From the IMG/VR virus record IMGVR_UViG_3300031718_000012, positions 1-60,280 of that record: a stretch of DNA of 60,280 nt. The stretch is one strand, 5' to 3'. This DNA is from a virus (Duplodnaviria > Caudoviricetes). Positions within the stretch are counted from its first letter, which is position 1; each line of letters begins with the position of its first letter. This document shows, piece after piece, positions 16,995-51,268 of this stretch. The notes below the pieces were generated by a model. The model was not told the DNA's origin, did not search any database, and worked only from the letters and a program-made list of their open reading frames with translations. A program made the translations under genes and the position numbers.

Positions 16995-17024
16995 GCCCGT
17001 CAAGCTGCATTCAACTTGACGGGC
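16995..17024. repeat. 30-bp palindrome, copy 1 of 3
   Basis: GCCCGTCAAGCTGCATTCAACTTGACGGGC; related copies at 42801 and 59129. Confidence 0.75.
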
Positions 17025-18325: not shown

Positions 18326-18354
18326 AATCTACATCCGACCGGGCCGCGCGTCAA
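18326..18354 (-). promoter_or_regulatory. internal sigma70-type promoter
   Basis: TTGACG-17-TAGATT upstream of the 18302 start. Confidence 0.65.
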
Positions 18355-18755: not shown

Positions 18756-18784
18756 TTTTTTTGATTTCCTGCGAGACATCAAAC

Positions 18785-19255
18785 CTACTTTCCGGATTCA
18801 GTGGAGCTTTTCTGGACCACCGTAGCCTCCGGAGCTACTAACTTCACTTCATCGACCTTATCCTTGGGAACGTTCATCTGCTGGAAGTCCGAAGGAGCCA
18901 GCTTGTCCTTGAAGAACGCGGGAATAAATTTCTGTGCGAAGAACCAGTCGATCAGCGAATCGGAAACGAAACCTAGCGCCATGAATGGCACCACGCCGGG
19001 ATTGATGTTGAACGGAAGGTGCCATCCAAATAGACCGAAGACGGCCGTGAAGCCGAATTTCTCGCACGCGTACCAGATAAAAAACGCAATGAACCATCGC
19101 GTCAGAATCGTGATGACGTTGCGCACGACGAAAGCCCAAACCGTGTGGAGCGGATTGGGATCCGCGGAAGTTACGAGCTGCGCGCGTTTCAGCAAGAACA
19201 CAAACTCGCCCAACAGAAAGCCCAGATAGCTGAAGACCAGAAGCCAGTTAATCAT
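18785..19255 (-). CDS. candidate holin
   Basis: Three to four TM segments, charged C-terminus, position after fibre genes. Confidence 0.55.
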   Translation of the reverse strand: MINWLLVFSYLGFLLGEFVFLLKRAQLVTSADPNPLHTVWAFVVRNVITILTRWFIAFFIWYACEKFGFTAVFGLFGWHLPFNINPGVVPFMALGFVSDSLIDWFFAQKFIPAFFKDKLAPSDFQQMNVPKDKVDEVKLVAPEATVVQKSSTESGK

Positions 19256-19265
19256 CGCGTATCTC

Positions 19266-21578: not shown

Positions 21579-21582
21579 CCAC

Positions 21583-24500
21583 CTAGTGATTGGCGATTAT
21601 CAGAGCAACCGCATATTGCGGAGTCGTTGAGCAGCCGGTTGACGCCAGCGTGCTGGCTGCGGCGTAAAGTAGAGCGTTGACCGAAACGTTGGACGCGATC
21701 GACACCACACTTTGGACGAACGTTCCTGAGCCATTACCGACTGTGCCATTCCCCGAAATCGTCAGTGTCGGCCCGGCAATGGTCTGGGTGTTACCGTTCG
21801 CGTCGGTGTAGGTGATCGTCGGCTGAGCCGTGTTGCTCGCAGCTGAACAGCCGACGCCGGCGCGCGTCTGGTAAACCTGAATTCCAACGATGGCGCCACT
21901 GAAGAAGCTAGCCGCGCTGCTCGAGCCGAGCGCTGCACCAAAATTGGTCGCAGCGGAAACGGGATTGCCGCCCGCGATCGTTGCAGCGACGTTCAACACG
22001 TTAGAGGAATTGTTTTGGTTTAATCCCCCCGAGAAAGACAGCGGGGCGTCTCCCTCGTAATCGGTCGACGTCGCCGTGTTGGCCGCGACGAACATCGTGC
22101 GCCATTTGTTCAGGACCGGGACCGACGCGCTGCCGTTGAAAGTATCGCCACCGGCAAATGCGACCGTTGAGTTCGTGGTTCCGACGGTCATCAAGAAAAT
22201 CTGGAACGTGGTCGATGGCTGCGTGGCTGGAAAGGTATACGCGCAAGCCGCCGTGCAATTCATGATGACGAGCTTGCCGTTGTCGGCGGAAGTTGCTCCC
22301 TGGGACGTCGTGTACGTGACCGACCCGTTGAACCCGCCGCCGCCCGAACCGTTCGACGCTGCGGTGATCAGGCCTTTCGCGTTGACGGTAATGTTCGCAT
22401 TCGTGAAAGAGCCGACATTCGAGTTGACCGTGGCAAGCGTTGTAACCAAGCCTCCGGCTGTGGTGGTTAGGTCGCCAGTAAGCGCGGGGAATGCGGTGCC
22501 CGATAGCCGCCCATTCGCATCGGTCGGAAGAATCTCAGCCGACCAGTAATTGTTCGAAGCATCGGTCCACCAGAAAGCACACTCGGGATTTCCGCTCGCT
22601 CCCTGGCTACGCAGGATCTGCGTCGCATTTCCGTTTACCGTCGACGTCGTTGGCGTAACAGTCGCGACGACCGTTCCGGTATTGCACAACGCGAAAGCGA
22701 AACCGCTGGTGAGCGTCGCGCCCGAAGGTACGCTCAGCGCCGTCGACGTGGTGTTATTCGTGAGCTGGACGAGGTGTACGTTATCGGTCTGGGTGACCGC
22801 CGGCGTCGCGCTCGATTGCGCGTCGACTGGAACGCCAGGCGTCGAATTCACGATCGCCGTGCCGTTGTACATGAGCGTCTGGCCCGACGTGAGCGACGTC
22901 AGCGTGAGTGTGGTGCCCTGCAATTTCGAAACAGTTTGTGACGTGCTAGTTCCGGTCAGGTCGCCGCCCGCCGTGAAACTTCCGCTGGGACATCCGGACG
23001 TCGTAGCGCCGCCGTTCGCATCGGTGCACAGCGCCGCGCTGGTTCCGGTAATAGTCCCTGCCGACAATACGTTGACATCAGTGCCTTGAATCGCGGTGAA
23101 GAAGACAGCTTTCCCGGATCCCAGTTCGTCGGTGAGCGCGGCCGCAAGATTCGCGCTGGACGGAGTGCCCAGAAAAGTTGCGACACCGGTGCCCAAGCCC
23201 GAGACTCCGGTTGAAATTGGCAGACCGGTGGCGTTCGTGAGTACTCCGCTCGCGGGAGTGCCGAGAGCGGGAGTGACCAGCGTCGGCGACGTAGCGAAGA
23301 CGAGGGCGCCCGTTCCGGTTTCTCCCGTGACGGCCGCGGCCAGATTCGCGCTCGACGGAGTCGCGAGAAACGTGGCTACCCCGGCTGCCAGGCCAGACAC
23401 ACCGGTTGAAATCGGTAGACCTGTCGCGTTAGTCAACACCCCGCTTGCTGGCGTCCCGAGCGCCGGGGTGACAAACGTCGGCGATGTCGCGAAGACCAAC
23501 GCGCCGGTTCCGGTTTCGTCGGAAATTACTCCAGCGAGTTGCGCGGAAGTTGTCGCGGCGAACTGGTTCAGGCCGGATCCCGTGACGCCGCAAGTGGCGC
23601 ACGCGATCGCGCCGGCCGCGCTGATGGTGATTGGCGAGCTGCCGCTCAGTCCAGCCGATCCGACATTCGCGATCGGTATCCCCGTCGGCATCATCGCCGC
23701 CGTCAGACCGTTCAAGGTCGCGCCAGCCGTAAGCGTTAGAATTCCCGTAGCGCCCAGCGTCAAGGTATGCGGAGATGTGAACGTCAAATCCGGTTCGCAA
23801 CCGAACGCGCCGCCATTGTTGATTTGAACTGACAGCGCGGTTGTGGTGCAGGGGACGCCGGCGCTGCCGTTCGCCGCTGCGGTAATTGAGCCGTCAGCAG
23901 CAACCGTGATATTCGCGTTGGTGTAGCTGCCCGGAGTTACCGCTGTCGCCGCGATGTTGGCGTGCGGGATCCCGGTGGGGAGCATGGCGACCGTCAAACC
24001 GTTCAGCGTGGACCCGGCCGCGAGCGTCAGGATTCCGGTGGCACTCAAGGTGAGAGTGTGCGGCGAAGTGAAAGTTAAATCCGGCTCGCAAGCAAAAGCT
24101 CCGGAGACGTTGAGCTGCACCGAGCCCGCGACGGCGGTGCACGGAACCGTGATGGTTCCATTCGACGCCGCGGTGATCGACCCGTCAGCGGCGACGGTGA
24201 TGTTGGCGTTCGTATAGCTGCCGGGCGTGACGGCCGTGGGCGCGATGTTCGCGTGCGCGAGCTGCGCGACCAGGCTTAATACGCCGTTCGTGTCGAAGAA
24301 AATTCCGGTGGAAGCGGCGAGAGTCGGAAGCGCCAGGCCGCGCAAACCGACGACGGTTTGTGACGTCAGTGTCCCGTTCAGATCCCCGCCGGCTGCGAAC
24401 AGCGGACAAGAAACCGTGGTCGCGCCGCCGTTGCCGTCGGTGCAAAGCAAGAGCGCTGAAGTCCCTCCGATCGTTCCCGAGGAAAGCAGGTTGCTGTCGG

Positions 24501-25146
24501 TGCCCTGGACCGCGAGCGTCATGGTGTCGACGTAGGGCGAACCGGACGTTCCGGATCCGGTTTGCGTCAGCGACCATACACGAGAAGGCGCGGCGATAAT
24601 TTGCAGGAAATTATTTGACCCGGTAATCGCGGTCTGCGCGCCCCACTGGTAGCTCGCAAAAATGCTCGAGCCGCTGGAAGATCCTCCGAAGATGAATCCA
24701 TCGACGGTGACCAGGCCGGCGAATCCGGTCGACGTGGTTGAATCATGAAGGAATCCGATGACCCAGGTTCCGGCGGTCGGCGGGTTCGATTGTGCGTGGC
24801 ACTCGGTCGACGTAGTCGGGCTGTTGACGACGTAGCTCGCGCCGGAATTGAAAGTGTTCGAGTCGAAGGTGCAAAGCGCCAAGCCTCCGAAAGCAAGCGC
24901 GGCTGGCGTCGTCGCGGAAACTCCCGCGCCACCGACGACGATATAGGTCGGAACCTGAGTGTCCGTGATGCCGGCATTGATTGCACGGCCGGCGAGAGAA
25001 ACTTTTGCGGTTCCATTGAGCGTGGTTCCCGTCGTTGTGTCGTTTGGCTGGGGGAACGCGCGCGCGCCATTTATGACCGCCTGGCCCTGGGCCCCCAGGA
25101 CGGCGAGAAGAATGAGCAGAACCGGTGCGAAAAGTTTTTTGATCAT
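21583..25146 (-). CDS. repeat-rich tail-fibre-like protein with signal peptide
   Basis: VTPGSYTNANITVAADGSITAA and TPASGVLTNATGLPISTGVSGL repeats; MIKKLFAPVLLILLAVLGAQG leader. Confidence 0.75.
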   Translation of the reverse strand: MIKKLFAPVLLILLAVLGAQGQAVINGARAFPQPNDTTTGTTLNGTAKVSLAGRAINAGITDTQVPTYIVVGGAGVSATTPAALAFGGLALCTFDSNTFNSGASYVVNSPTTSTECHAQSNPPTAGTWVIGFLHDSTTSTGFAGLVTVDGFIFGGSSSGSSIFASYQWGAQTAITGSNNFLQIIAAPSRVWSLTQTGSGTSGSPYVDTMTLAVQGTDSNLLSSGTIGGTSALLLCTDGNGGATTVSCPLFAAGGDLNGTLTSQTVVGLRGLALPTLAASTGIFFDTNGVLSLVAQLAHANIAPTAVTPGSYTNANITVAADGSITAASNGTITVPCTAVAGSVQLNVSGAFACEPDLTFTSPHTLTLSATGILTLAAGSTLNGLTVAMLPTGIPHANIAATAVTPGSYTNANITVAADGSITAAANGSAGVPCTTTALSVQINNGGAFGCEPDLTFTSPHTLTLGATGILTLTAGATLNGLTAAMMPTGIPIANVGSAGLSGSSPITISAAGAIACATCGVTGSGLNQFAATTSAQLAGVISDETGTGALVFATSPTFVTPALGTPASGVLTNATGLPISTGVSGLAAGVATFLATPSSANLAAAVTGETGTGALVFATSPTLVTPALGTPASGVLTNATGLPISTGVSGLGTGVATFLGTPSSANLAAALTDELGSGKAVFFTAIQGTDVNVLSAGTITGTSAALCTDANGGATTSGCPSGSFTAGGDLTGTSTSQTVSKLQGTTLTLTSLTSGQTLMYNGTAIVNSTPGVPVDAQSSATPAVTQTDNVHLVQLTNNTTSTALSVPSGATLTSGFAFALCNTGTVVATVTPTTSTVNGNATQILRSQGASGNPECAFWWTDASNNYWSAEILPTDANGRLSGTAFPALTGDLTTTAGGLVTTLATVNSNVGSFTNANITVNAKGLITAASNGSGGGGFNGSVTYTTSQGATSADNGKLVIMNCTAACAYTFPATQPSTTFQIFLMTVGTTNSTVAFAGGDTFNGSASVPVLNKWRTMFVAANTATSTDYEGDAPLSFSGGLNQNNSSNVLNVAATIAGGNPVSAATNFGAALGSSSAASFFSGAIVGIQVYQTRAGVGCSAASNTAQPTITYTDANGNTQTIAGPTLTISGNGTVGNGSGTFVQSVVSIASNVSVNALLYAAASTLASTGCSTTPQYAVALIIANH

Positions 25147-26078
25147 TGCGTCAGCACAACCTTTCCGGCCTGAGCGAGCGCCCAGAGAATCGTTACATTC
25201 CCTGAGCTGTCCACGTTCAGGCTGGCGGGTTCGATACGATTTCCGTTCGAGTCATACGTTGCGACCTGCAGGCTGGGCCCCAGGTTGTGAGTCGCCACTG
25301 GAATCGACCAGGTGGTGGAGCTGGTTTCGGTCTGCGCGAATACCGCGGGCCCCGTTCCGTTCAGAACGCAATAACCGGATTGCGCGATCGAGAAGGTGAC
25401 AACGACGTCGAACGTGGTTTGGTTGATCGTCCAATTCGCGGGCAGTAGCGCGTTCGCGGGTGATGCGTTGTCATAGCACGCGAGAATCAGATGGGTGGTA
25501 GCGAGCTGGTGAACTGAGCCAAGCATGGTGACCGTGGTGACTGAGACAAACGACTGCGCGTAGTTCGGCGCGGCCGGTCCTCCACCGCCCCCGCCTCCAC
25601 CCCCGCCGCCCTGCCTCCAGGTCTCAATCCACTGCGACCCGATGAGCGTCAGCCCGATCGCGTCGGTCGACGTGCTGCAGGTCCATGGCGACACGGCCAG
25701 CCGGATATCCACGGAACTGACAATCGAAGTGAAGTGGTCACCAGTGCCACAGAAAATCTGAATCGATTTGCCCGGGAACCCGCCGTTGAACGCGGTAATG
25801 TTCACGTTCGCGACGTTCTGCGTAAGCCAGTTGGTATAGCCAGCGACCGAGGGAGACGACGTTGACTGCTGCAGCTTGCCGTAACCGCCTAGCAGTCCAT
25901 CCAGAATGTTGAAGTTCGCGTTAAGGCAGTTGCCCCACACGCCGATGTTTCCGATGGGCGGAAGCCATAGCCGGACGTTTATGGTTGGCGTGCAAGGAAA
26001 ATACTGCGCATGCGCCACGCCCGAAACGACCGCCAGAAGAAAAACTAGAGCCGCGAGTTTTAGAATTTTCATTCGCAT
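25143..26078 (-). CDS. tail-fibre-like protein with signal peptide and poly-Gly linker
   Basis: AHA signal peptidase site; INVRLWLP...WGNCLNANFNILD fibre-anchor-like motif; two (H)NLG...YD repeats. Confidence 0.7.
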   Translation of the reverse strand: MRMKILKLAALVFLLAVVSGVAHAQYFPCTPTINVRLWLPPIGNIGVWGNCLNANFNILDGLLGGYGKLQQSTSSPSVAGYTNWLTQNVANVNITAFNGGFPGKSIQIFCGTGDHFTSIVSSVDIRLAVSPWTCSTSTDAIGLTLIGSQWIETWRQGGGGGGGGGGGPAAPNYAQSFVSVTTVTMLGSVHQLATTHLILACYDNASPANALLPANWTINQTTFDVVVTFSIAQSGYCVLNGTGPAVFAQTETSSTTWSIPVATHNLGPSLQVATYDSNGNRIEPASLNVDSSGNVTILWALAQAGKVVLTQ

Positions 26079-26087
26079 GTCGTCACC

Positions 26088-26161
26088 AAAAAAAAATGGC
26101 TCGCAAGCGCCGAAGCGCCTACGAGCCATCAGAGTCGGTCCTAAAATTCAGGAGCTCAGAT
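26088..26161 (-). promoter_or_regulatory. conserved structured element plus intrinsic terminator (copy A)
   Basis: ATCTGAGC-TCCT-loop-AGGA-CCGACTCTG then ATGGCTCGTAGGCGC-TTCG-GCGCTTGCGAGCCAT and a T tract. Confidence 0.8.
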
Positions 26162-26168
26162 CAAGGCT

Positions 26169-26360
26169 CTACAACCTGGTTTCTTTCAACTCTCGCTTAA
26201 GACTCTTGTGCAAACATTCCGCGTCGACCAGCTCGCCATCGCGAAAGTGAATCGACACCGTTCCGTTTCGCGGACCCACTTTGAGAGCGTGAAACAAAAC
26301 TTCATCGACTTCGAGCTTTTCCCCTGTCGACGATTTGACTTCGCACTTGGGCTGGGCCAC
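26169..26360 (-). CDS. 63-aa DUF2292 (YezD/OscA)-like protein
   Basis: AGGAG RBS, GTG start; DEVLFHALKVGPRNGTVSIHFRDGELVDAE matches the helix-G-x-V-x-I-xx-DG pattern. Confidence 0.65.
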   Translation of the reverse strand: MAQPKCEVKSSTGEKLEVDEVLFHALKVGPRNGTVSIHFRDGELVDAECLHKSLKRELKETRL

Positions 26361-26368
26361 GCGCTCTC

Positions 26369-27040
26369 CTACAGACTTGGGACCACCGTGAACTGCATGT
26401 AGCTTTCGTTCACGGTAAAAATTTGGCCGAAGACCTCGAACGACATCGAAGATGCATCGGTCTGACCTTTCGATGTGAACGTGACGGTCGCGCCATTCGC
26501 GTAGTCGGCGGTCACAAAACTTGCGGCGAGTGAACCGTTGGCATTGTTCGCGACGGTATCGGCCTGTGACGGCCCCATGATCGTCGTGCCATCGGTGACG
26601 TACATGCTGATCGTGTTGCCGCTCGATGCCGTGTTCGATGACCAAAAATACATATAGGTGATCAGCACGCGGCAAGGGCAACCGGATGCCGGCATGGTGA
26701 TGGACTGACTGTCGAGCGAGTTCAGCACGCCGCCTGAAATGGTGGTCGTTCCGGCGAGAAACTTGGTGGTGACCGCCTGGACCGGACCGCCGCAGGAAAG
26801 CGGAATCGTGGTGAGCAAGCCACCCGTCGAAGCCTGGACGCATTTGCCGGTGGTCAAGGCCGAATCGGTGAGGGTCGTGAAGACTCCGGTCGATGGTGTG
26901 GTTGCCCCAATCGGAGATGAATCAATCGTTGAGGACTGTACCGCGATGCTGCGGACGACTGTATTCGCCGCGCCGACCGCCACGACGAAAAGCGCGGCGA
27001 GGAATAGGGTTTTCGCGGTATTGACCAGAAAATTCTTCAC
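26369..27040 (-). CDS. short fibre/tip-like protein with signal peptide
   Basis: GGAGG RBS, GTG start; KTLFLAALFVVAVGA leader; IDSSPIGATTPSTGVFTTL fibre-like motif. Confidence 0.7.
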   Translation of the reverse strand: MKNFLVNTAKTLFLAALFVVAVGAANTVVRSIAVQSSTIDSSPIGATTPSTGVFTTLTDSALTTGKCVQASTGGLLTTIPLSCGGPVQAVTTKFLAGTTTISGGVLNSLDSQSITMPASGCPCRVLITYMYFWSSNTASSGNTISMYVTDGTTIMGPSQADTVANNANGSLAASFVTADYANGATVTFTSKGQTDASSMSFEVFGQIFTVNESYMQFTVVPSL

Positions 27041-27042
27041 GC

Positions 27043-27135
27043 CTAGCCTCCCCACTTCGCGTTCCCGATGGCGTTGCCGAGCGAGGCTGCCGCTTGCTTG
27101 GCCGCGTTTTTTACCTTGGACCAAAACTTCTTCAT
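27043..27135 (-). CDS. 30-aa cationic amphipathic peptide (not in the ORF track)
   Basis: MKKFWSKVKNAAKQAAASLGNAIGNAKWGG; 2-nt gaps to both neighbours. Confidence 0.6.
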   Translation of the reverse strand: MKKFWSKVKNAAKQAAASLGNAIGNAKWGG

Positions 27136-27137
27136 AT

Positions 27138-36408: not shown

Positions 36409-37902
36409 TTAAGAATTCACTGAAACCAAGACGTCGACTTCCTGTACGGCGCCCGCGAGTTTGACCGCGATTTGAATCGGCACACCGATTCGCGCCGACC
36501 GTTGGGCTTGGGTCTGCGAGGCCATCGACGGGCACCAGATGTAATAGCCCTTGCTGACCGTGTCTCCGGTATTGAGGGCCCCGAATCCCGCGGACGTCCA
36601 GGTGCCGGGAGCAAACAATCCGTTGTTTACGAATTGCTGAGCGACATTCGCGATCGCGGTGGTGATGGTCGCCATGCCGGGATCCGTTTGCGGAACCTTG
36701 GTCGGAGTCGTGAAAAGAACATTGAAGACCGCAGTCTGCGCCAGAATCGCGAAAACCAAAACGCCAATGACGGAATCGATGTACTGGCCCGAGCAGCATT
36801 GGCCCATTTCGATGATCGCCGTAGCGTTATTGTAGGCGACGTATACGTTGCAATTTTTGGCTTCGAGCGCGTTGACCTGCGTGATCGACAGGTTCTCCGG
36901 AGTGATGCCCGGCTCCTGTTTGTACATGAGCGTGATGGCCGAACCGCTCGCCTGGTAGTTGGTGGTGAGGATCCGGCCGAGCAAGCTGACGACGGCCGCG
37001 GAATTAGAAGACGAATACTGCACGCACGTCCGGTTGAGTCCCAACTGTTGCAGCAAATATGCGAGCGACGTGGTGTCGCCAGGAGTGAGCGTCGCCGCTT
37101 CCTGCGACGTCACACCGTAAAAGTGAATGTTGGCCGACGTCGCTTCGATATAAGGTCCGATCGCGAGCGCGTCGGCGTCCACGATTCCCAGCACGGTCAA
37201 ACCAAACCACAATTGGCCGAACAGCGAATCCATGAGCGTGACGCAGGTGATGGCGCTTTCGGCAACTAGGCCCGGCGCTTGGAACGAACCGGATGCGAGC
37301 TGCGAAAGTCCGGTCAACACCGAGATGTCGGTTCCCGAACCAGGCGCGGTGGCAAATGACACAGAAGACGCTGCACCGGTGGTGTTAGACGTAACGACGA
37401 AACGCTGATAAATCGCGTTCCAGACGATCGTTGCGCCAGTTAGTCCCCCTTGAATGACCGAGGCGACGGCGTTCATGTTTCCTACGGCCGAGAAGTTCAG
37501 TCCGGTCAAGTGTTCGACCGACCCGCCGTCGATCGTGATATTCATCGCGCCGGTGGTGATTGAGGTCCAGAAAGACGGAAGCTGCGAAGCCGCGGGAAGC
37601 GTCGCGCCGAGTAGCTGGCCGGCTGACGCAGTCTTGACCCAGCGACCGATTAAAAGTGAGGTGGGTTGCGGGTTCTGTGAGAACCAGAGAACGGCGGCGA
37701 GATATTCGGGGGCGCTCGTTCCGAAGTCGGCGGCCACTTGCGCGATCGACGTATAAGTCCGAATGCGCGTCACGGTGTCGATGACGGTGGACGACCCGAC
37801 GACCAGCATCGAATTGATGTTCTGCGCTTGCGCGGCCTGCGCTTGCAGCGAAACCTGGACGTTGATCAGTCGTGAAATCGGAAGCGTCGCGACACTCGAC
37901 AT
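36409..37902 (-). CDS. tail sheath protein (DUF3383)
   Basis: DFGTSAPEYLAAVLWFSQNPQP...MYKQEPG...KVPQTDPG...IAVKLAGAVQ. Confidence 0.9.
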   Translation of the reverse strand: MSSVATLPISRLINVQVSLQAQAAQAQNINSMLVVGSSTVIDTVTRIRTYTSIAQVAADFGTSAPEYLAAVLWFSQNPQPTSLLIGRWVKTASAGQLLGATLPAASQLPSFWTSITTGAMNITIDGGSVEHLTGLNFSAVGNMNAVASVIQGGLTGATIVWNAIYQRFVVTSNTTGAASSVSFATAPGSGTDISVLTGLSQLASGSFQAPGLVAESAITCVTLMDSLFGQLWFGLTVLGIVDADALAIGPYIEATSANIHFYGVTSQEAATLTPGDTTSLAYLLQQLGLNRTCVQYSSSNSAAVVSLLGRILTTNYQASGSAITLMYKQEPGITPENLSITQVNALEAKNCNVYVAYNNATAIIEMGQCCSGQYIDSVIGVLVFAILAQTAVFNVLFTTPTKVPQTDPGMATITTAIANVAQQFVNNGLFAPGTWTSAGFGALNTGDTVSKGYYIWCPSMASQTQAQRSARIGVPIQIAVKLAGAVQEVDVLVSVNS

Positions 37903-37914
37903 GGCTAAATCCTC

Positions 37915-38565
37915 CTACAAATTGAAAGGCCCGATGCCGTAGGGCAGTTGCCCGTATCCCGGCTCGACCTTGAAGTCTTGTTTACCGCCCTCGCCGGCAT
38001 CGACGCAGAACGGGACACCAATCAAATTCGGCGACTTGTACTTGTAAATCTGTTGGCGGCGCAAACTGAATCGCACGTCTTCGCCTCGAAGCCACTTATT
38101 CTTGACCAGTGCGGGAGCCGTGACGGTTTCGCGCACCAAAATCAAGTTAAAACCGTTTTGCATGAGCTGATATCGATTCTGTTCTAACGCAATACCGATT
38201 GCAAACACTTCGCTGTTGGCTTGTGCCTTAGGACCATAGAAGCTCGCCAAAATTTCGAGCTCCTGATTTCGAATCACGCGATCGTGCGAAAGGTCGAAGT
38301 TAATCGGCGACGTGTGATGGTCGACGAAAGCGAACGCCGGCCGAGTGCGTGTCAGCCCTCCGACCGCGGCCCACGAAACATCGCGTTCGGGCGGGTCGGG
38401 TGGATTCTCCTGCCAGCGCGGTCGGACTAAATCGCCATCCAGTCCGGTAATCTGCGCGACGGTTTGCTGCATCAATCGATCGAGCAGCAAATCGTTCAGC
38501 TCGCCGTTGGTTGAATACGGCGGCGTGAATGCGCCAGGGCCAGGTTGGATTTCGGGTTCGATCAT
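37915..38565 (-). CDS. neck/tail terminator protein
   Basis: ITGLDGDLVRPRWQENPP...ILASFYGP...QNRYQL. Confidence 0.8.
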   Translation of the reverse strand: MIEPEIQPGPGAFTPPYSTNGELNDLLLDRLMQQTVAQITGLDGDLVRPRWQENPPDPPERDVSWAAVGGLTRTRPAFAFVDHHTSPINFDLSHDRVIRNQELEILASFYGPKAQANSEVFAIGIALEQNRYQLMQNGFNLILVRETVTAPALVKNKWLRGEDVRFSLRRQQIYKYKSPNLIGVPFCVDAGEGGKQDFKVEPGYGQLPYGIGPFNL

Positions 38566-38969
38566 TCCCGCGCCTTCGTCGGGCGGTCGACCATGTCGGT
38601 CGACTCGCAGGTACATTGCACAAATCCCTTCGCGAAATTCGAATAGTCCTTCACATCCGTCACCAGGAACTGATTGCCGTTCCACTCAATGACGTCCGGC
38701 TGGAACTGGACCTGGTCGGTCGTTTCCGATTCGCCGCGCAGCGCGAACCGCGTGATGATGACAATCGTTTTGGCGTTGACCTGGCGCGCGGCCTCGCGGG
38801 TCAAACCTTCCTGGCCATCGGGATAAATGACGCCGCGAACATTCGGGATGCGGTTGATGGTCATCTTCCCTTCGCCGAAATTGTTCACGACCTGCTGTCG
38901 CCGCAAAACGATGCAGGTGTCGAGCGTGTACGGATTCGTCAGCGCGACAGACAAATCCATCATCGGCAT
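38562..38969 (-). CDS. head closure / head-tail adaptor
   Basis: VLRRQQVVNNFGE...QPDVIEWNG; synteny. Confidence 0.7.
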   Translation of the reverse strand: MPMMDLSVALTNPYTLDTCIVLRRQQVVNNFGEGKMTINRIPNVRGVIYPDGQEGLTREAARQVNAKTIVIITRFALRGESETTDQVQFQPDVIEWNGNQFLVTDVKDYSNFAKGFVQCTCESTDMVDRPTKARE

Positions 38970-39496
38970 CAGCGTGTACTCGGTCGCAGCACATACGAAT
39001 AGTGCTGCAGAAGTTGCGCGGTATCGATGAGCGGCTTCGTTCCGGTGCGGCCGCGACGCCGGCGAGCTGCCAAGGTCGATGCGTCGAGCGGCGCGAATGG
39101 CCCGGTCTGCATTTTATTCTGGACGCCCGAAACCGCGATTTGCCCGACCGCGTGAAGATTGCGTTCGACTCCGGTCGCGCTTCCTTTCAGCGCTTCGAGC
39201 GCGGCGGCTTTTAGGTACGGCATGAACTTCGGTTCGGCGTCGAGGATCCCGGGCTCGAGATGCGGCCGCGCGGGAATATTTTGCGTGGGGCTACCGAAGT
39301 TGTGAATGTATGCGAGTGCGGCGTTCCCGATTGCGGTTGGCTTTCCAGTGGCCGGGTCCGGGTCCCGGTAATCTTTTTCCTGCGGGATGCCGACGAGGAC
39401 GTCGGTCTTCGTGAGCGCCGCGACGCCGCGCGCGAGCTGCGCGGAATTGTCGGTGACCTTGATGGACGAAACCATTTTGATCAGTGGTCGCGGCAT
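38969..39496 (-). CDS. neck / tail completion protein
   Basis: VLVGIP...NAALAYIHNFGSPTQNIPARP...KPLIDTAQL. Confidence 0.8.
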   Translation of the reverse strand: MPRPLIKMVSSIKVTDNSAQLARGVAALTKTDVLVGIPQEKDYRDPDPATGKPTAIGNAALAYIHNFGSPTQNIPARPHLEPGILDAEPKFMPYLKAAALEALKGSATGVERNLHAVGQIAVSGVQNKMQTGPFAPLDASTLAARRRRGRTGTKPLIDTAQLLQHYSYVLRPSTR

Positions 39497-40014
39497 CAGT
39501 TTCCGAAGGTGGTAATTCCAGGGCGGGTATTGGGTCCGGAGTACGCTGGACCTCCGTCCGAAGCTCCGGGAACTGTTCCAGCAATGCAACCATCTGGGCC
39601 AACTTGGATAGGGCCCATTCCAGCCAACTGCAGGAGTCGGTAGAAACGAGTACCGTATGTCGTGAGGTTGTAATTGCCGGCTCCTTCCTCGAGAGTGTCG
39701 GGCACATCGTAACTGAGATTGACGTCGCCCGCGCCTTCGGCCGAAATCGCGCCCTTCGAAATTCCCGGCCATCCCCCGGCTTGCGCGGAGCTCTGCGCCT
39801 GAGCCTCGAGCACCATATTGTGCGCGGCAAAAAGTTCGGTGGCCAGATACAAAATGTTGGGATCAACGAACCGTTCAGGGCGAAGAAGGAAAGAAGCGAC
39901 CGCCAGCCAATAATTTAGTGTTGAAGGAAGATACGTGGTGGCGTTCGCGAATTCAGGAAAGTCTTCGCGGAATTGCGCGACGGTTACGACGGGAGTAATG
40001 TTTGCAAACGGCAC
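39496..40014 (-). CDS. DUF4054 head-tail adaptor
   Basis: FREDFPEFA...LFAAH...YNLTTYGTRF. Confidence 0.85.
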   Translation of the reverse strand: MPFANITPVVTVAQFREDFPEFANATTYLPSTLNYWLAVASFLLRPERFVDPNILYLATELFAAHNMVLEAQAQSSAQAGGWPGISKGAISAEGAGDVNLSYDVPDTLEEGAGNYNLTTYGTRFYRLLQLAGMGPIQVGPDGCIAGTVPGASDGGPAYSGPNTRPGITTFGN

Positions 40015-40020
40015 CGGGCC

Positions 40021-40299
40021 TCACGTTTGTTTCCAGAGCGCGGCGTTGCGGCGATTGATTTCCGCTGCCGTAATTTTTACCGGAACGGTTTCTTCCGCGT
40101 CGATCGTCGGCTGGTACGACTGCGTCGATCCCGCGCCAGATCCCGCGCCGTTCCCAACCAGGGGCACCTGATAATCGGCCGATTTGCGCGCTTCGTTTTC
40201 GGCGATCGCCACAGCTTGTTTCTCCGGCTTCCCTGCATGGCGCTCGGTCGCGATGTTTTGAGAAATGGTCGCCTGCGAACTGCCCTCTTTTAGCGGCAT
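40021..40299 (-). CDS. small head-associated phage protein
   Basis: [16 protein letters not shown]...KQAVAIA motif common in phage head modules. Confidence 0.7.
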
Positions 40300-40307
40300 G
40301 CGACTCC

Positions 40308-40811
40308 TTACTTATCGAAGCCGAGTCCCGTCGCGATGGGCTTCTTTTGCTGGTTGCCGCGATTCGACTTCATCTCTTCCGCTTTTTTGTTGATGGTGTA
40401 ATTCTTGTGCGCAAGAATCGTTTTCGTTCCTTCCTCGTCGACGATTTTGGTAGCTGCTTCGCGGTCGGGAGTTTCGCCATCGGCGACTTGTTCCGACATG
40501 AGCCAGCTGATCGCTTCCTCGCGCAGCGGATTGACTTGCGTCGCCGCGCCGGCTTCGCTCCCGACTTCCGAGGCGGGCCGCATGTTGGCGACGATGTATG
40601 GATGGTTCTTCAGCTCGACCGCGACGGCGTTCATGCCCTTGAAGTAGTCGATCGTTTCCCCCTGGTGCAAGGTAAGCGTGAACGGCGAGTCGGCGAACAT
40701 CAGAACTTTGTCGCCCGAGAGCTGCGCCAGGTGGGGAACTTCGGGCATGGGCTTCAAGTGCGGGAATCGCTTCTGAACTTCTGCTCGCGTCGGGGGAGTG
40801 CTGGTTTCCAT
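40308..40811 (-). CDS. hypothetical protein following the capsid gene
   Basis: AGGAG RBS, synteny. Confidence 0.65.
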
Positions 40812-40883
40812 GGCTTTTGTCTCCTAAAGCTACGGGCCGGATTATGAGTCCGGCCCGCGAAAGTTGTCAACGACGACCGGCGT

Positions 40884-42062
40884 TTAGATCTGGTCGAAGT
40901 AGCCGACGGTCTGGGGGTACACGAATTCCATGACGCCCAGGCGGCAGAAATAGGTGGTCTTGTGGTAGATCCCGTCGTACTGAATCGGAGTGCGCTGCAA
41001 CATGGTCATCGGGAAACGGACCTTGTCGTAGGCCTTGGTGTACACGATCATCCGATCGACCGTGTTCAGCGTTCCGATCGTGCCGCCGGCTCCTGCGCCG
41101 ATCGCCCACTTGAGCGGAAGAATTTCGAGCTTCGCGCCGCCGTTCTGCTCGAGCAGGTTGTTGTCTTCGATGTACTTCTTGATCGATACGTTCCCCGCGT
41201 TTGAAACTTTCGCCGTGGAGATGTAGCCGTATTGAACTGGAGGAAGCAGGATCCGGTTCGACATGATGGCGAAGCCCGACGCCGTCCAGACCGAGACGAG
41301 CGCGGTGTTGATGTCGGCCAGAATTTCATCCGGCGATTTGCTGACCCACTGCGTGAAGCCGGCTGCGCCCGCCGGGACGTTGGTCTTCGTCACGTTCGGG
41401 TTGGTGATTAGGCCCTGGTCGCCGGTGGACGTATCGCCGATGTAGACCTGTTCGTCGATGTCCATCTGGTGCTTGAGCGACATGCCCTGGAATTTCTGCA
41501 CGTCGATGGGACGGCCGAGTTTCGCCGCGCTCTCGAGTTCCGGAATCGTGTACTTCAATTCCGTGCCCCAGAGGCGCAAGGGCGAAACGAACTTGCCGAT
41601 GTCGACGCCGATGCCGGTAATTTGCGACGTGTTCTTTCCGATCCACGCCTTACCGTTGCCGATGCCGTTCCCCGCGCCCAGGCCTCCGGACGCGCCGTAG
41701 GTCGAAGCAGTGAAGCTCGACACTTCGTCGGCGAGCGTGACGTCTTCGCGCAAGTCGATGTCGCGGCCCCAGGTGACGGCGGCGAGAGGGTTGTGGAGCG
41801 TCTGATCGAGGCGTTCCAATTCTCCGATCAGGAACGCGCCCGTCGAGTCATAGGTGCGCGTCGACCCCGAAGCGGAATCGTAAACGTCGCACGGGCGACC
41901 GAAGCGCATCCCGGCATGCGTGGGGATATTGTCTCCGCACAGACCGTGGTCCATGACCATGCTCGTCTGGTCGAACGTCATGAGCTGGTCATTGGTCCGA
42001 CGGCGCCCCGCGAATTCTCCGCCACGCACCGGGCGGGAAAACAAGCTCTTGAGTGATCGCAT
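40884..42062 (-). CDS. major capsid protein (DUF2184 / HK97 fold)
   Basis: AFLIGELERLDQ...WGRDIDLRED...YTIPELESA...DEQVYIGD...GVMEFVYP. Confidence 0.9.
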   Translation of the reverse strand: MRSLKSLFSRPVRGGEFAGRRRTNDQLMTFDQTSMVMDHGLCGDNIPTHAGMRFGRPCDVYDSASGSTRTYDSTGAFLIGELERLDQTLHNPLAAVTWGRDIDLREDVTLADEVSSFTASTYGASGGLGAGNGIGNGKAWIGKNTSQITGIGVDIGKFVSPLRLWGTELKYTIPELESAAKLGRPIDVQKFQGMSLKHQMDIDEQVYIGDTSTGDQGLITNPNVTKTNVPAGAAGFTQWVSKSPDEILADINTALVSVWTASGFAIMSNRILLPPVQYGYISTAKVSNAGNVSIKKYIEDNNLLEQNGGAKLEILPLKWAIGAGAGGTIGTLNTVDRMIVYTKAYDKVRFPMTMLQRTPIQYDGIYHKTTYFCRLGVMEFVYPQTVGYFDQI

Positions 42063-42109
42063 GTCGTTACGCTCCCGTTACAGATTCAAAATCTGCTGCT
42101 GCAAAATTG

Positions 42110-42757
42110 TTAGAACTTCAGTTCGACGAGGCCATCTGGACCGGCCGGGCCGTTGAAATAAACGCTCGGAACCGGAAGGGCGATGGTCGAACCGCCGGTG
42201 GACGACACTTCGAATCCACCCTGGACGTGCGCGCCGCTCGAGGCCGCAACCCAAACGAAAACCGGAGCGCCTTTGACGATCGCGCCCGTGCCCGATTGCG
42301 CAACGATGACGTAGCCCGACTTCAACACGTCGATGACGCCGGCCGGCGGTACACCCGCGGTTGGTGCGCTGGTCGGACCGGAAATCGCGACGGCGCCGAA
42401 ATTCGAAGTCGAAGACGGCTGAATCGGGAAAGGACGAACCGCGACGCCCGCGATATTCGTCAGGCCGGTGTCGCCCGCGACCATGCCGCGATAGGCGTTC
42501 GGCGTGTTGCCGGTCAGTGAGAAATACACCGCCAGGCCGTAGGCCCCGACCGGGTTCGTCGTGTCCTGCAAGCCCTGCTCAATCCAGAACGGGTGTGATC
42601 GATTGACGTCGCCCTGGAATCCCGTGCCCATCCGGAAACCGAATGACACGCCGTCGTGGGTGCGCCGACGCATGACCAGGAGATTTCCCTTTCGATCGCG
42701 CATGTGCGGCGTCGGGGAGAAGCTGCCAACCAGTGCTCGCATGGTTTCGAATTTCAT
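42110..42757 (-). CDS. capsid decoration/cement protein
   Basis: RMGTGFQGDVNR...GVAVRPFP...DVLKSGYV; between scaffold and capsid genes. Confidence 0.75.
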   Translation of the reverse strand: MKFETMRALVGSFSPTPHMRDRKGNLLVMRRRTHDGVSFGFRMGTGFQGDVNRSHPFWIEQGLQDTTNPVGAYGLAVYFSLTGNTPNAYRGMVAGDTGLTNIAGVAVRPFPIQPSSTSNFGAVAISGPTSAPTAGVPPAGVIDVLKSGYVIVAQSGTGAIVKGAPVFVWVAASSGAHVQGGFEVSSTGGSTIALPVPSVYFNGPAGPDGLVELKF

Positions 42758-42800
42758 GGTCTATCGGCTCCTTGATTCAAAATCGGTTCACAAAACTCTT

Positions 42801-42830
42801 TGCCGTTCAGTTGAATTCAACTTAACGGGC
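42801..42830. repeat. 30-bp palindrome, copy 2 of 3
   Basis: TGCCGTTCAGTTGAATTCAACTTAACGGGC. Confidence 0.65.
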
Positions 42831-44249
42831 GTTTTGGCGATTCCAGAATTCCGCGTTCGCCTTGTTCACATCCGTGATCGAGCGGATCTTGCCCTTGCCG
42901 GAATCGGCCGTTGCGGCTGCGCCGTTCGCGCGAGCCGGCTGCGCTTGGTTAGCAACTTTCTTCGCCGCGCCCACCGCGTTGAATAGCGTGCGCGTTTCGT
43001 GGCTCGACAGTTTCTCGATACCATCGGCGGTAATTTCGCGGCCGCGAATGGCCCACGTGAGCTGGCACGTTGCCGCATCGAGCAATCCGAGTTTCAGCGC
43101 GCGCTTGCGCAGACCGGTGACGGCTTTCAGCGTGACCGTCGGCTTGGCTTTTGAATCGAACGTTGCGAGCTGCACGCCAGGGGCGATGATTTCGGCTGTC
43201 GCGAGCGTCTGTTGGAACGAACCTTCGAGGACCGCGGAGTCGCCGGTGAGCGAGATGGCCGAGTCGCCGGTTCCCGGCGGCACTTCCTCGGACATTTCGT
43301 CCTTGGCTTCTTTTTCCTCTTTTTCCTTTTCCGCTTCGGCGTCCTTCGAGGCTTTGTCCTCGGACTCGGTCTTGCCTTTCTTGAGTTCCTCGATCGAGTC
43401 CATGACTTTCTTGAACGAGTCGTCGATTTTCTTTTCCATCTCGCCGAACTTGCCCTCGATCGCGGCGTCGTTCCACTTGGGAGCGCCATCACCCGGGGCC
43501 GTCGACGTTCCGGCTTTGCCCGGTTCGCCGCCGATATGGAAGTGCTGTTCGACCTTGTGACCTTCATCCGCGGAGTCGTACGTCATGGCCGTCGCTTCCG
43601 TCGGAGCTGCGGCCAGAATCGCGTCGATGTTTTTCTTGGCATCGCCGGTCAGCTTGGAAGCGGCGCAGCGCAGGGATTCCAGAAAGTTTTTCTTGGACAT
43701 TTCGTTTCCTCCGAATTTTTCATCGCCGACACGACACGTTGAACCGCATCGCGCCATATCGACCAGCGCCACATGGTTCACGATGATATTTTTCTGATAA
43801 CCGCGCCCCGGCTCCGTCTGGAAATAGTCGCAGTCGTATCCGCAGGACAGCTCGACCTTGCCCCCGTCGATTTCTTCGATCGCATCGGCATCCATGACCA
43901 CGACATCAGCGACCAGGTAATCCGAGAGGTCGCCTTTGCCCCGGCGAGGATCCAGCACGATTCCGATCGCCAATTCCTTGAAATTGGTGGGATCCACTGG
44001 GTGGTGGAAACTGATCAGCGGCTTTGCGTTCGCGCTCGCAATCGTTTCCGGCCGGAACACTTCATCTTCGTGGCGCTCGATCGTGACCAGGCCGCGTTCG
44101 TCGCCCTTGAGGTGAACTTCGGCTTCGGTGTAAATCTGCTCGCCGATGCGCGCGATCGGTGATTCGGGGAAAACGTAGAAACCCTCGGGCGTCTTCCACT
44201 TTTTCGCCGAGAGCTTTTCGGTTGTGTAGAACCGCATCGCCACGCGCAT
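42822..44249 (-). CDS. DUF2213 prohead protease-scaffold
   Basis: TPEGF...PIARIGEQIY...ELSCGYD...NHVALVDMARCG, then acidic scaffold region. Confidence 0.9.
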   Translation of the reverse strand: MRVAMRFYTTEKLSAKKWKTPEGFYVFPESPIARIGEQIYTEAEVHLKGDERGLVTIERHEDEVFRPETIASANAKPLISFHHPVDPTNFKELAIGIVLDPRRGKGDLSDYLVADVVVMDADAIEEIDGGKVELSCGYDCDYFQTEPGRGYQKNIIVNHVALVDMARCGSTCRVGDEKFGGNEMSKKNFLESLRCAASKLTGDAKKNIDAILAAAPTEATAMTYDSADEGHKVEQHFHIGGEPGKAGTSTAPGDGAPKWNDAAIEGKFGEMEKKIDDSFKKVMDSIEELKKGKTESEDKASKDAEAEKEKEEKEAKDEMSEEVPPGTGDSAISLTGDSAVLEGSFQQTLATAEIIAPGVQLATFDSKAKPTVTLKAVTGLRKRALKLGLLDAATCQLTWAIRGREITADGIEKLSSHETRTLFNAVGAAKKVANQAQPARANGAAATADSGKGKIRSITDVNKANAEFWNRQNAR

Positions 44250-44255
44250 TGCTCC

Positions 44256-44328
44256 AAAAAAAAACGGCCACCGACCCGGTTAGGGTCGATGGCCGTCAGA
44301 GTTGGTCCCGTCTAGCGGGAGCTCAGAT
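44256..44328 (-). promoter_or_regulatory. conserved structured element plus intrinsic terminator (copy B)
   Basis: ATCTGAGC-TCCCG-loop-CGGGA-CCAACTCTG then ACGGCCATCGACCC-TAACC-GGGTCGGTGGCCGT and a T tract. Confidence 0.8.
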
Positions 44329-44344
44329 TGGGGCCGCTAAACTT

Positions 44345-44868: not shown

Positions 44869-45463
44869 TCAGTCCCCATACTGGAGAACAAAGGCCGCGT
44901 TGTACAGGATTAAATTATTCGCGTTGTCGAATTGCGGCAAGGCGTTCGGAAAAGTAAATAGCACCGTCGTGCCGTTGAGCTGCACCGTGACGTTCGCTAG
45001 GTCGCCGACGATGCCCTCGCCCGTGATGGCTGGATCCACGATTCCGGTGGGAAGGTTCCCGCGAAAATCTTCGCTGACTGGGGCCACGCTGCAATCGATC
45101 GAAAGCGTGGTTGATTCACCGTCGGAATTAAAGGGAACGTTGTATTGCTTTCCGGGCGTGTTCACACTCTGGAATCTAAGTACGATCTGCGGAATTGTCA
45201 ACTGCGGTTGTCGAATCCGCTATCTGGTAAAACTCGAATTTAATATTTTTTATCTTGGTAGAAATCCAGTCGTACATCTCGGGGGCCCCTACAACAGAAA
45301 CTCTTTGCCTAAGAATATCCGTCTGACGTTTAGTCAGGCGGATTCGGCATATGCCGTCGGTTGAGCAACAGATTTTGCGCAAATCTTCAAATATTTCCGA
45401 GGGGGTCTTTCGGTCCCACTTAGCTGAGCCAGCAGCGCCGATGATGCTAATTTCCACCTTCAT
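44869..45463 (-). other. two small hypothetical genes (44869-45201, 45176-45463)
   Basis: Operon-oriented ORFs between head morphogenesis and 44851. Confidence 0.5.
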
Positions 45464-48383: not shown

Positions 48384-48494
48384 CAGTTCATTGTCCTTGT
48401 TTCGCCGGATGAAAAGCCCTCGCGTGCAGTTGTGGGCCATCCGGCGAAGGAAGGTTTACCACTGGACCACACGCGAGAGCAAAACCGCTCGGGG

Positions 48495-51249: not shown

Positions 51250-51268
51250 GCCGAAAATCTAACATGGT

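Follow-up and report, generated by a model that had tools for sequence, protein, structure and literature searches.

Phage late-gene control is textbook knowledge for a few model phages, in which it is exerted by N, Q, put, late sigma factors or Mor/C. To our knowledge it is essentially unknown for the bulk of soil phages. The nut signature is a boxA word with a conserved boxB loop, and the apical loop of boxB carries N recognition. nutL and nutR are a near-identical pair within a genome and differ between related phages, and N proteins are phage-specific. HK022 put is a pair of polymerase-binding stem-loops whose processive action needs no protein. ANTAR RNAs are two hexaloop hairpins. In ON riboswitches the P1 helix shares bases with the terminator.

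RAT hairpins (BglG/SacY/LicT) are 29 to 33 nt long and share 6 to 10 nt with the terminator, according to the available part of PMC5393181. Processive antitermination systems of the nut/put kind are summarised in PMC11658703, the accessible portion of which presents HK022 put, EAR, conAn2 and canT as cis-acting structured RNAs of mobile elements that pass polymerase through terminators. The average terminator stem is 7 to 9 bp, and a terminator with a 15-bp stem withstood a processive antitermination system (PMC10325885, accessible text).

The two modules and the genes behind them

The stretch of DNA analysed (the window, 60,280 nt) is the complete 60 kb genome of a soil phage. It carries one hairpin-plus-terminator RNA element in two copies, A and B, both on the minus strand. 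The sequence-only reading had reported a repeat at two sites and this was confirmed. ATCTGAGCTCC has two exact matches, both on the minus strand (26151-26161 and 44318-44328), and GGACCRACTCTGA is exact at 26129-26141 and 44296-44308. The gap between the two words is 9 nt in each copy, and the words common to both copies surround a variable inner hairpin. At up to 2 mismatches the matches to ATCTGAGCTCC numbered 12 where 13.9 were expected, which leaves the exact pair alone as exceptional. The folding z-scores of the 80-81 nt modules A and B were -6.0 and -6.3. The repeated element in the window is real. H1 denotes its imperfect hairpin and P0 a candidate helix extending H1.

26086..26172, minus strand, whole module of copy A: GAGCC word, H1, terminator, T9 and GG (60.8 bits with model R2)
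26088..26096, minus strand, T9 tract of copy A, followed by a GGTGA ribosome-binding site and ATG at 26078
26095..26130, minus strand, terminator hairpin of copy A, 16 pairs; GAT + GGCTC at its start (26123-26130) double as 3' strands of the H1 outer tier and of P0
26128..26161, minus strand, H1 of copy A: tiers ATC/GAT, GAG/CTC and TCCT/AGGA, 1x4 internal loop, variable apical loop
26165..26169, minus strand, candidate 5' strand of P0 in copy A, GAGCC, overlapping the G of the mini-ORF TAG stop
26169..26360, minus strand, putative 63-codon mini-ORF with a GTG start and AGGAGA 4 nt upstream
44250..44339, minus strand, whole module of copy B (52.7 bits with R2)
44256..44264, minus strand, T9 tract of copy B, followed by GGAG and ATG at 44249
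44263..44297, minus strand, terminator hairpin of copy B, 15 pairs, with GGCC (44291-44294) as the P0 3' strand
44295..44328, minus strand, H1 of copy B, inner tier TCCCG/CGGGA
44332..44335, minus strand, candidate 5' strand of P0 in copy B, GGCC

The earlier claim of a terminator fused to each copy was borne out by the 16- and 15-pair stems, each followed by T9 and then GG. In both copies a G+C-rich stem-loop precedes a U-tract on the transcript strand, as in an intrinsic terminator. The two were the longest-stem terminator-like hairpins, each in its own scan. Total numbers of terminator-like hairpins in the scans were at shuffle level (26 vs 24.6, 33 vs 26.4 and 12 vs 16.1).

Each copy stands directly before a gene block on the same strand.

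18351..26078, minus strand, block behind copy A: 311-aa, 1187-aa repeat and 770-aa proteins and two small ORFs
40884..44249, minus strand, block behind copy B, made up of the next three genes
42822..44249, minus strand, DUF2213 protease/scaffold, first gene behind copy B
42110..42757, minus strand, XM1 gp53-like minor capsid protein (decoration)
40884..42062, minus strand, major capsid protein
45173..45201, minus strand, sigma-70-like promoter TTGACA-17-TAGATT, lying about 850 nt upstream of copy B and conserved in the relative G001
40841..40870, minus strand, sigma-70-like promoter TTGACA-18-CATAAT, directly past the capsid gene, conserved in G001

No sigma-70-like site was found on this strand between 44256 and 40870, the block behind copy B. 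From copy A to 18354 the only promoter-like site scored 9/12 and lay within the 770-aa gene. The description of a structured transcript-sense element on strong terminators, ahead of promoter-less late blocks, was upheld. The 311-aa protein has an N-terminal signal-peptide-like segment. Lysis genes had also been placed behind copy A, but the proteins scanned in that block gave no lysis family match.

Copies in related phages and structure of the hairpin

Three further copies were found in two related uncultivated phage contigs, one in L048 and two in L135. Model R2 gave 51.5 to 60.8 bits for all five copies and at most 15.4 bits elsewhere in 1,671,485 + 493,740 bases. Approximately 2.2 Mb of other relatives' loci and 40 related records searched whole yielded no further copies. 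One architecture is common to the five copies in the three phage contigs. The L048 terminator has 13 bp and T8, and the L135 copies have long stems with tracts T5AT4 and T6AT3, so that stems among the copies are 13-16 bp or more. In 5/5 copies the ribosome-binding site and start codon follow about 6-12 nt past the U-tract, which leaves no room for a promoter. In L135 the two modules are only about 900 nt apart and flank one gene, element 2 lying about 10 nt past the stop of the tail-fibre gene.

Identity within a genome was 72% for A and B and 82% for the two L135 copies, against 45-60% across genomes. Copy A resembles its paralogue B more than it does L135 element 2, its positional orthologue. 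The apical loops and terminator stems of A and B have wholly diverged despite the identical words of 11 and 13 nt. Co-evolution with a genome-specific partner would be expected to give this greater likeness within than between genomes alongside diverged loops and stems.

The flanking words had been described as single-stranded; they are in fact paired and make up the outer tiers of an imperfect, larger hairpin. H1 is 34 nt long (about 47 nt with P0) and has three tiers, one mismatch, a 1x4 internal loop and unconserved apical loops of 4-7 nt. With a structure of 16 pairs laid on the five copies, 86.1% of 79 cells were paired, compared to 25-50% when the partners were slid, and both-sided changes occurred at 6 pairs. 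The covariation score was reached by 0/500 shuffles, a statistic that overstates independence, given that the sequences number only five and come from three related genomes. H1 by itself was not unusually stable (z = -1.7 and -1.0 in copies A and B). Owing to the variable apical loop, the distance between the outer words differs by as much as 3 nt from copy to copy, and the transcript strand contains G-U pairs.

These features bear on whether the site acts as DNA. It is most improbable that the module is a late promoter or operator whose half-sites are the two words and which a phage sigma factor or activator would recognise. Two conserved words with a variable spacer would suit such a site, as would the TCTGA word, which we take to resemble the -10 element of RpoE/AlgU-type promoters. 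Three relatives (L092, L093 and L095) carry a sigma-70-like promoter and an upstream dyad at the corresponding junction. The word distance is not fixed, however, the changes are compensatory with G-U pairs on one strand only, and L048 and L135 have different words. Any transcript that started past the words would have its 5' end inside the terminator. The earlier statement that the window holds no Q-like or sigma late regulator also stood, as a six-frame search of it found no sigma, Q or Mor family gene. Six-frame searches of the window and G001 found no CAT_RBD, ANTAR, Sigma70_r2, Q (two families) or Mor. By family, the counts were 0/3 records for CAT_RBD (PF03123, HMM search, E<=1; control positive in 9/14 genomes), 0/3 for ANTAR (PF03861) and 0/2 each for the Q families PF06530 and PF03589.

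Release of the module as a stable 3'-UTR RNA of about 85 nt, acting in trans as a base-pairing regulator or protein sponge, is very unlikely. The modules do lie in the 3' UTR of upstream genes, have no promoter-like site of their own and end in a strong terminator with a long U tail. Their conserved bases are mostly paired rather than exposed, and no complementary phage site was above chance, matches with up to 2 mismatches being at shuffle level. The fixed join to the ribosome-binding site of the next gene in 5/5 copies would also be left unexplained.

H1 abuts the terminator in 5/5 copies, with 0 nt between them in the consensus register, and its 3' outer-tier bases are the first bases of the terminator. 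GGCC or GAGCC is found 2-3 nt upstream of H1 in 5/5 copies. In the consensus this word forms P0, a helix of 4-5 bp that extends H1 and takes the next 4-5 terminator bases as its 3' strand, so that H1 and P0 share 4-8 nt with the terminator (P0 plus GAY). In consensus P0 87.5% of cells pair, compared to 8-54% with partners slid, and the covariation of P0 alone was reached by 57/500 shuffles. P0 was present in the nascent-RNA MFE of 3/5 copies and in neither L135 copy. When random genomic 18-mers took the place of the upstream flank, the energy gain was matched or exceeded in 22-46% of trials, and pairing to the terminator base was seen for 41-72% of shuffled flanks. The P0 overlap helix is weak: it is consistent with the data and not above chance in controls. 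The P0 conformer is less stable than the terminator conformer by 5.8-13.2 kcal/mol, and termination is therefore the default.

A protein-free, riboswitch-like ON switch in which a small ligand stabilises P0 and H1 is hardly credible. The closing helix shares bases with the terminator as such a switch would require, but the internal-loop sequences differ between genomes, while ligand pockets are normally invariant. The element is also small, its P0 is no stronger than chance and it has no Rfam match. Rfam 15 gave tRNA only across the whole window. In the two 161-nt regions at E<=10 the top score was 15.2 bits, where the gathering scores are 37-100, and the families differed between A and B; no Rfam match to the put model was obtained for either module.

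Comparison with described systems and a possible gate

It is tentatively proposed, at somewhat less than even confidence, that the modules are gates. In each a factor-stabilised hairpin would abut or overlap the terminator base, with RAT-like geometry and nut-like phage specificity. Transcripts from upstream sigma-70-type promoters would meet a long-stem intrinsic terminator before a promoter-less late block and would stop there by default. H1 would be the binding site of a candidate phage-specific trans-acting factor, most likely a protein. The bound factor would hold the terminator base or block its closure, and the polymerase would continue into the capsid and fibre-like genes. The repeat, its conserved structure, the terminators, the absence of space for a promoter and the greater likeness within genomes are observed, while regulated read-through, the role of H1 as the switch and the existence of the factor are inferred.

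The likeness to RAT lies in an imperfect hairpin with a stem broken by two conserved internal loops and a variable apical loop, as in H1. At its 3' end the RAT hairpin overlaps the start of an intrinsic terminator of greater stability, and transcription stops by default, as far as the available RAT text goes. The module, where termination is likewise the default, would overlap its terminator by 4-8 nt in the consensus; P0 is in the nascent MFE of 3/5 copies and is equalled by random flanks in 22-46% of trials. RAT differs further. No CAT_RBD was found in any frame here, and the module lies between phage structural genes with full upstream genes on the transcript, whereas RAT belongs to sugar-operon leaders.

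With lambda N/nut the module has in common RNA hairpin sites upstream of terminators, two per genome, near-identical within a phage and differing between phages (nut features partly from the available parts of PMC11658703 and PMC4496710). It differs in its unconserved apical loops, in having no boxA, with only GCC common to the five copies 5' of the hairpin, and in always abutting a terminator. It precedes late structural genes rather than early genes, and no N-like protein was identified. HK022 put, EAR, conAn2 and canT resemble the module in being cis-acting antitermination RNAs, a function only proposed for the module. They act at a distance on many terminators and are larger or have two dedicated stem-loops, whereas the second stem-loop of the module is a canonical terminator with U8-U9. 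ANTAR RNAs differ in their loops, which in the module vary in length and sequence, and no ANTAR domain protein was found. TerR of pLS20 is similar in its stem of about 15 bp, set against the reported average of 7-9 bp (PMC10325885, accessible text). It ends an operon with nothing to read beyond, while capsid genes lie directly behind the module.

H1 might alternatively be a nut-/put-like loading site. Such an RNA, by itself or together with a small phage protein and host Nus factors, would make the polymerase termination-resistant here and at later stops. A near-identical pair in each genome, differing from one related phage to the next, would fit, and no other late regulator was found in the window or G001. 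This is nevertheless quite unlikely. Processive sites act at a distance and need no terminator contact, while H1 abuts the terminator in 5/5 copies. The apical loops are unconserved, no boxA-like word is conserved across the five copies, and two L135 modules about 900 nt apart would be redundant for a processive device. The terminator stems are long, and the resistance of long stems to one processive system, as given in the accessible text of PMC10325885, argues for a dedicated local device.

The modules could also be plain, very strong operon-end terminators, with H1 an accessory that insulates terminator folding from the sequence upstream or stabilises the 3' end, and the blocks expressed by residual read-through or a general late polymerase change. 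At least five distant relatives (L114, L035, L034, L038 and L042) have a plain short-stem terminator directly before the same protease gene without H1; reading through it there requires no H1-type hairpin. The modules sit at the 3' ends of upstream genes, the P0 overlap is energetically not above chance and the z-score of H1 alone is unremarkable. We consider this reading unlikely all the same. An insulator needs structure only, and would leave unexplained the 11- and 13-nt identical words of the paralogues amid diverged loops and stems, and the 72-82% identity within compared to 45-60% between genomes. It would also leave the virion proteins made in greatest amount without a promoter and downstream of T9 terminators of 15-16 bp, and long stems withstood one processive system in the accessible text of PMC10325885.

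The factor of the proposed gate had been sought next to copy A, which starts 7 nt past the TAG of the 63-codon ORF, as first described. The ORF had been called DUF2292/YezD/OscA-like, but no Pfam DUF2292 match was found even at E<=10. The six-frame search with PF10055 was positive in 0/3 records at E<=1 (control positive in B. subtilis). Its sole DUF2292 lead, at Atlas rank 10, scored 0.81, below the reliability line of the tool, in a cluster that is 30% DUF2292. No homologue other than the ORF itself was found, and L135 lacks the ORF at its orthologous site. Judging by its sequence, it is an orphan and not a member of the DUF2292 family. Co-occurrence with the element had been predicted; the ORF adjoins 1/5 copies only, an outcome that had been named in advance as counting against the proposal. 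The partnership of the element with the mini-ORF, an orphan without DUF2292 signal that L135 lacks, is therefore unsupported. As far as the data go, a role as the gate factor is not supported.

The wider claim is rather doubtful: an undescribed phage antitermination in which a genome-specific RNA-binding factor would read the paired words and internal loops of a hairpin of about 47 nt clamping the base of a long-stem terminator that would otherwise be proof against antitermination. One key would fit several locks (the capsid operon, the tail-fibre gene and the secreted fibre-like proteins) and would set the timing of late expression or make it conditional. This complete 60-kb genome keeps its capsid genes, which have no promoter of their own, behind a 15-bp, T9 terminator, and in three related phages every stop of this kind carries the same sequence-specific hairpin. 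As a factor-operated switch the hairpin would make a gate of about 90 nt, compact and portable, and would suggest a new RNA-binding antiterminator. If H1 is not a switch it is still a clean lineage-specific terminator accessory motif, absent from Rfam. The very small family (five copies, uncultivated hosts) limits reach and testability. The predicted promoter at 40841..40870 would set off transcription again, through the neck/tail genes ending at copy A.

Gene order and promoters of the record

The analyzed sequence of 60,280 bp is a whole IMG/VR virus record with completeness rated 100% and a G+C content of 57%. One sequencing run was found to contain it, a soil metagenome that is the probable source DNA run. 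No RNA run with the sequence was present among the sequencing runs listed. Between 58526 and 7926 nearly all genes are carried on the minus strand. The order starts with small ORFs of no known function and a tRNA-Thr, followed by:

49308-51050, minus strand, portal
47682-48440, minus strand, basic 252-aa protein, candidate regulator, first gene behind the promoter-like site at 48523
45460-46341, minus strand, head morphogenesis protein, Mu gpF-like
44345-44851, minus strand, 168-aa protein with a signal-peptide-like N-terminus
42822-44249, minus strand, protease/scaffold, DUF2213
42110-42757, minus strand, minor capsid protein, XM1 gp53-like (decoration gene)
40884-42062, minus strand, major capsid protein
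36409-37902, minus strand, sheath
33567-35159, minus strand, tape measure with lysozyme domain
29366-30544, minus strand, baseplate wedge
27138-27704 and 26369-27124, minus strand, tail-fibre proteins
after the tail-fibre genes, minus strand, 311-aa protein (signal-peptide-like N-terminus), 1187-aa repeat protein and 770-aa protein
later in the minus-strand order, RecT and HerA-like ATPase

The tRNA-Thr (CGT) is located at 53330-53403 (minus strand) amid the small early ORFs. The 1187-aa gene contains two tandem 195-nt repeats at 23114-23503 which are 74% identical, and further internal repeats approximately 1.4 kb apart. The window gave no homologue of the relatives' large terminase when searched with BgManors32 TerL and with 18 ORFs, each 350 aa or longer, lying 5' of the capsid gene in six relatives' loci, putative terminases included. 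These queries matched only the portal, gpF-like and protease genes. The region upstream of the portal (51250-52860) contains short ORFs only. The 622-aa HerA/DUF87-like ATPase (8465-10333) had a weak PHROG match to 'terminase large subunit'.

Intergenic sigma-70-like promoters with a perfect TTGACA were located on the minus strand at 58561, 45201, 40870 and 15010, and near-perfect ones at 48523 (TTGACC) and 18354 (TTGACG). The record of the related uncultivated phage contig L048 is colinear with the window from approximately 57.9 kb to 36.4 kb and has counterparts of promoters 45201, 48523 and 40870 at matching places. The promoter-like sequence at 40841-40870 (minus strand, TTGACA-18-CATAAT) directly follows the capsid gene, and its -10 element forms part of a G+C hairpin loop. 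The matching site in L048 retains TTGACA and has a -10-like word in a loop whose stem is different and compensated.

Two further repeated words were noted. GATTTTGAATC is present exactly at 42774-42784 and 42083-42093 on the minus strand. There it directly precedes the decoration and major capsid genes' ribosome-binding sites, and similar words are at the same two places in L048. With at most one mismatch it had 8 matches compared to 1.7 expected. It may be a translation enhancer. Three copies of a near-perfect palindrome of 26-28 nt (core CGTCAAGTTGAAT and its complement) are located at 16995-17022, 42801-42828 and 59129-59156. Among them, one is in the divergent early region, another covers part of the protease gene's stop codon, and another directly precedes the 307-aa gene's ribosome-binding site. 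The palindrome is a candidate operator or RNA hairpin.

A repeated hairpin and terminator module

A sequence-only reading of this DNA had described two copies of a structured RNA element fused to terminators. The repeated 11-mer and 13-mer on which it was based were found again, each exactly twice, both on the minus strand and with 9-nt spacing in both copies (26129-26161 in copy A and 44296-44328 in copy B). Looser matches were at shuffle level. Each word pair is followed by a terminator-like hairpin, whose stem (16 pairs in copy A, 15 in copy B) is the longest in its scan, and then by T9 and GG. A ribosome-binding site lies in the next 6-9 nt, after which the 311-aa gene (ATG at 26078) or the protease gene (ATG at 44249) starts. 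The 80-nt modules folded well beyond shuffles (z approximately -6). This was due to the terminators, as the upstream 40 nt alone gave z values of only -1.7 and -1.0.

The words had been taken for single-stranded but pair with each other as the arms of an imperfect hairpin, H1. Its outer tier (ATC/GAT) is separated by a U-U mismatch from the middle tier (GAG/CUC), and a 1x4 internal loop (C against CCRA) lies between the middle tier and the inner tier (UCCY/RGGA). Apical loops are not the same in the copies, and the terminator stem begins with the three bases that end H1. The whole element had no Rfam match.

Relatives were searched for further copies. The protease/scaffold relatives encoded on viral and metagenome contigs were only approximately 30-40% identical, and none came with the element. 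With the capsid protein as query, 29 genome loci and 80 viral-contig loci were found (44-71% identity). Among these only L048, the closest (69%), had the element, at the same site between the 168-aa homologue and the protease gene. The whole 22-kb L048 record contained one copy. The baseplate wedge protein added 33 loci, and a covariance model of H1 identified two copies in one of them, the 4.6-kb contig L135, whose wedge protein is 66% identical. L135_2 is the positional orthologue of copy A, as it sits before the homologue of the 311-aa protein. L135_1 precedes a tail-fibre gene, a third position.

The second covariance model (R2), built from these five copies, scored them at 51.5-60.8 bits. 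Apart from them nothing scored above 15.4 bits in 100 + 67 sources (1.67 + 0.49 Mb). Whole-record searches of 40 related records, of which 23 are 90% complete or more, gave no match at E<=0.1. IMG/VR pattern scans yielded the same three contigs and otherwise only terminator-less matches, of which the three checked for frame were in coding sequence. The family as seen so far comprises five copies on three contigs. The element is a small, new motif family absent from Rfam. A limited, non-exhaustive literature search surfaced no phage element of this kind. In three relatives' loci (L092, L093 and L095) the junction equivalent to copy B has a dyad (TTTTCCGGTAACCGGAAAA) followed by TTGACA, 5' of the protease gene. 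This is predicted to be a regulated promoter and not a terminator.

In the five-row alignment of 16 pairs 86.1% of cells were paired compared to 25-50% with the partners slid. Six pairs had changes on both sides, one of them arising from a one-column shift of the palindromic GGCC, and the covariation score was reached by 0 of 500 shuffles. Given that only three related genomes supplied the sequences, support for the structure is good but not overwhelming. The outer words lie at distances that vary by up to 3 nt because the apical loop varies, and G-U pairs are present on the transcript strand. Both observations speak for RNA and against a spaced DNA site.

GAGCTC-N18-TCTGA was considered as an RpoE/AlgU-like promoter. 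Such a promoter was rejected because the words stand at variable distances, have other sequences in relatives and come with no conserved -10 element. An activator dyad was rejected on the same three grounds.

Identity outside the apical loop was 72% between copies A and B and 82% between L135_1 and L135_2, compared to 45-60% for all cross-genome pairs. Copy A is nearer to copy B than to its orthologue L135_2. The apical loops and terminator stems of the paralogues have no sequence relation, so the copies are not the product of a recent duplication. Most simply read, each genome would keep its own copies matched to something genome-specific.

Transcription through the terminators and a possible switch

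No promoter-like site was found on the minus strand from copy B to 40870, and from copy A to 18354 the sole one scored 9/12 and was inside the 770-aa gene. The next start codon is approximately 6-12 nt from the U-tract in all five copies. The capsid and fibre-like blocks must therefore be transcribed through the terminators. The repeat and its association with terminators, as first read, are real and conserved. The terminator stems are 13-16 bp or more, about twice reported averages. A 15-bp stem made a terminator resist a processive antitermination system in B. subtilis (PMC10325885).

Each of the five copies has a short word 2-3 nt 5' of H1, GAGCC in copy A and GGCC in the others, whose complement is formed by the initial 4-5 bases of the core terminator arm. 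The resulting helix, P0, would close H1 and take the terminator base. PMC5393181 describes such a geometry for the RAT hairpins to which LicT binds. P0 was contained in the nascent-RNA MFE structure of three of the five copies, and 87.5% of its cells were paired compared to 8-54% when slid. The terminator conformer was favoured over the P0 conformer by 5.8-13.2 kcal/mol. By default transcription would thus stop, and P0 and H1 would be held in place only with a factor bound. Three controls temper P0: random genomic 18-mers replacing the flank stabilised equally in 22-46% of trials, pairing with the terminator base was seen for 41-72% of shuffled flanks, and P0 covariation alone was matched by 57 of 500 shuffles. 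On these grounds the overlap of P0 and the terminator is rated plausible and unproven.

Ribosome-controlled attenuation was also considered. The upstream stop codon is 0, 10, 6, approximately 27 and approximately 50 nt from P0 in the five copies, distances so unequal that a terminating ribosome could not mask P0 in all of them, and this reading was rejected. A trans RNA partner inside the phage was rejected as complementary words were at chance level only. The best-supported reading is a hairpin that would bind a factor and work locally on the abutting terminator. The most likely of the readings, if somewhat short of probable, is that the element works as a factor-dependent gate on the late genes, with RAT-like geometry and nut-like specificity but belonging to neither family.

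The mini-ORF and the search for a regulator

The mini-ORF of 63 codons (26169-26360, minus strand) is preceded by a good ribosome-binding site. Frame arithmetic puts its third-position G+C closer to 0.57 than to the values of 0.65-0.8 typical of genes in this genome. No homologues were found, as a word-indexed search matched only the mini-ORF itself. An exhaustive HMMER search gave itself and two long proteins (E = 2.5e-4 and 6e-4 over 24-35 residues), and the Atlas gave a sub-threshold lead only. The proposed likeness to DUF2292 was not recovered: there was no Pfam DUF2292 match at E<=10, and a six-frame search in which the control was positive likewise gave none. The single-sequence structure model was unreliable (pLDDT 53.8) and too poor for a structure search. 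The mini-ORF's suggested role as protein partner of the element is unsupported, since it adjoins only one of the five copies and is missing at the orthologous L135 site. Only from its position after the tail-fibre genes do we infer that it may be a fibre chaperone.

Neither the window nor the L048 record gave a six-frame HMM match to Sigma70_r2 or Q (two families), in agreement with the earlier remark that no Q-like or sigma late regulator was visible, or to CAT_RBD, ANTAR or Mor. Scans of some 60 ORFs against Pfam, PHROG or NCBIfam gave no named regulator. NCBIfam had no match for the 252-aa protein (47682-48440) or eight other small proteins. The 252-aa protein had 133 homologues in metagenomes and bacterial genomes, with a precomputed Pfam domain in one of the 120 listed. 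Its conserved part begins at M20. The model had a pLDDT of 74, with the N-terminal domain above 90. Foldseek against the PDB gave a best E of 0.08, the weak matches being winged-helix DNA binders. This widespread, unnamed, possibly winged-helix protein is the sole regulator candidate and is regarded as a lead only.
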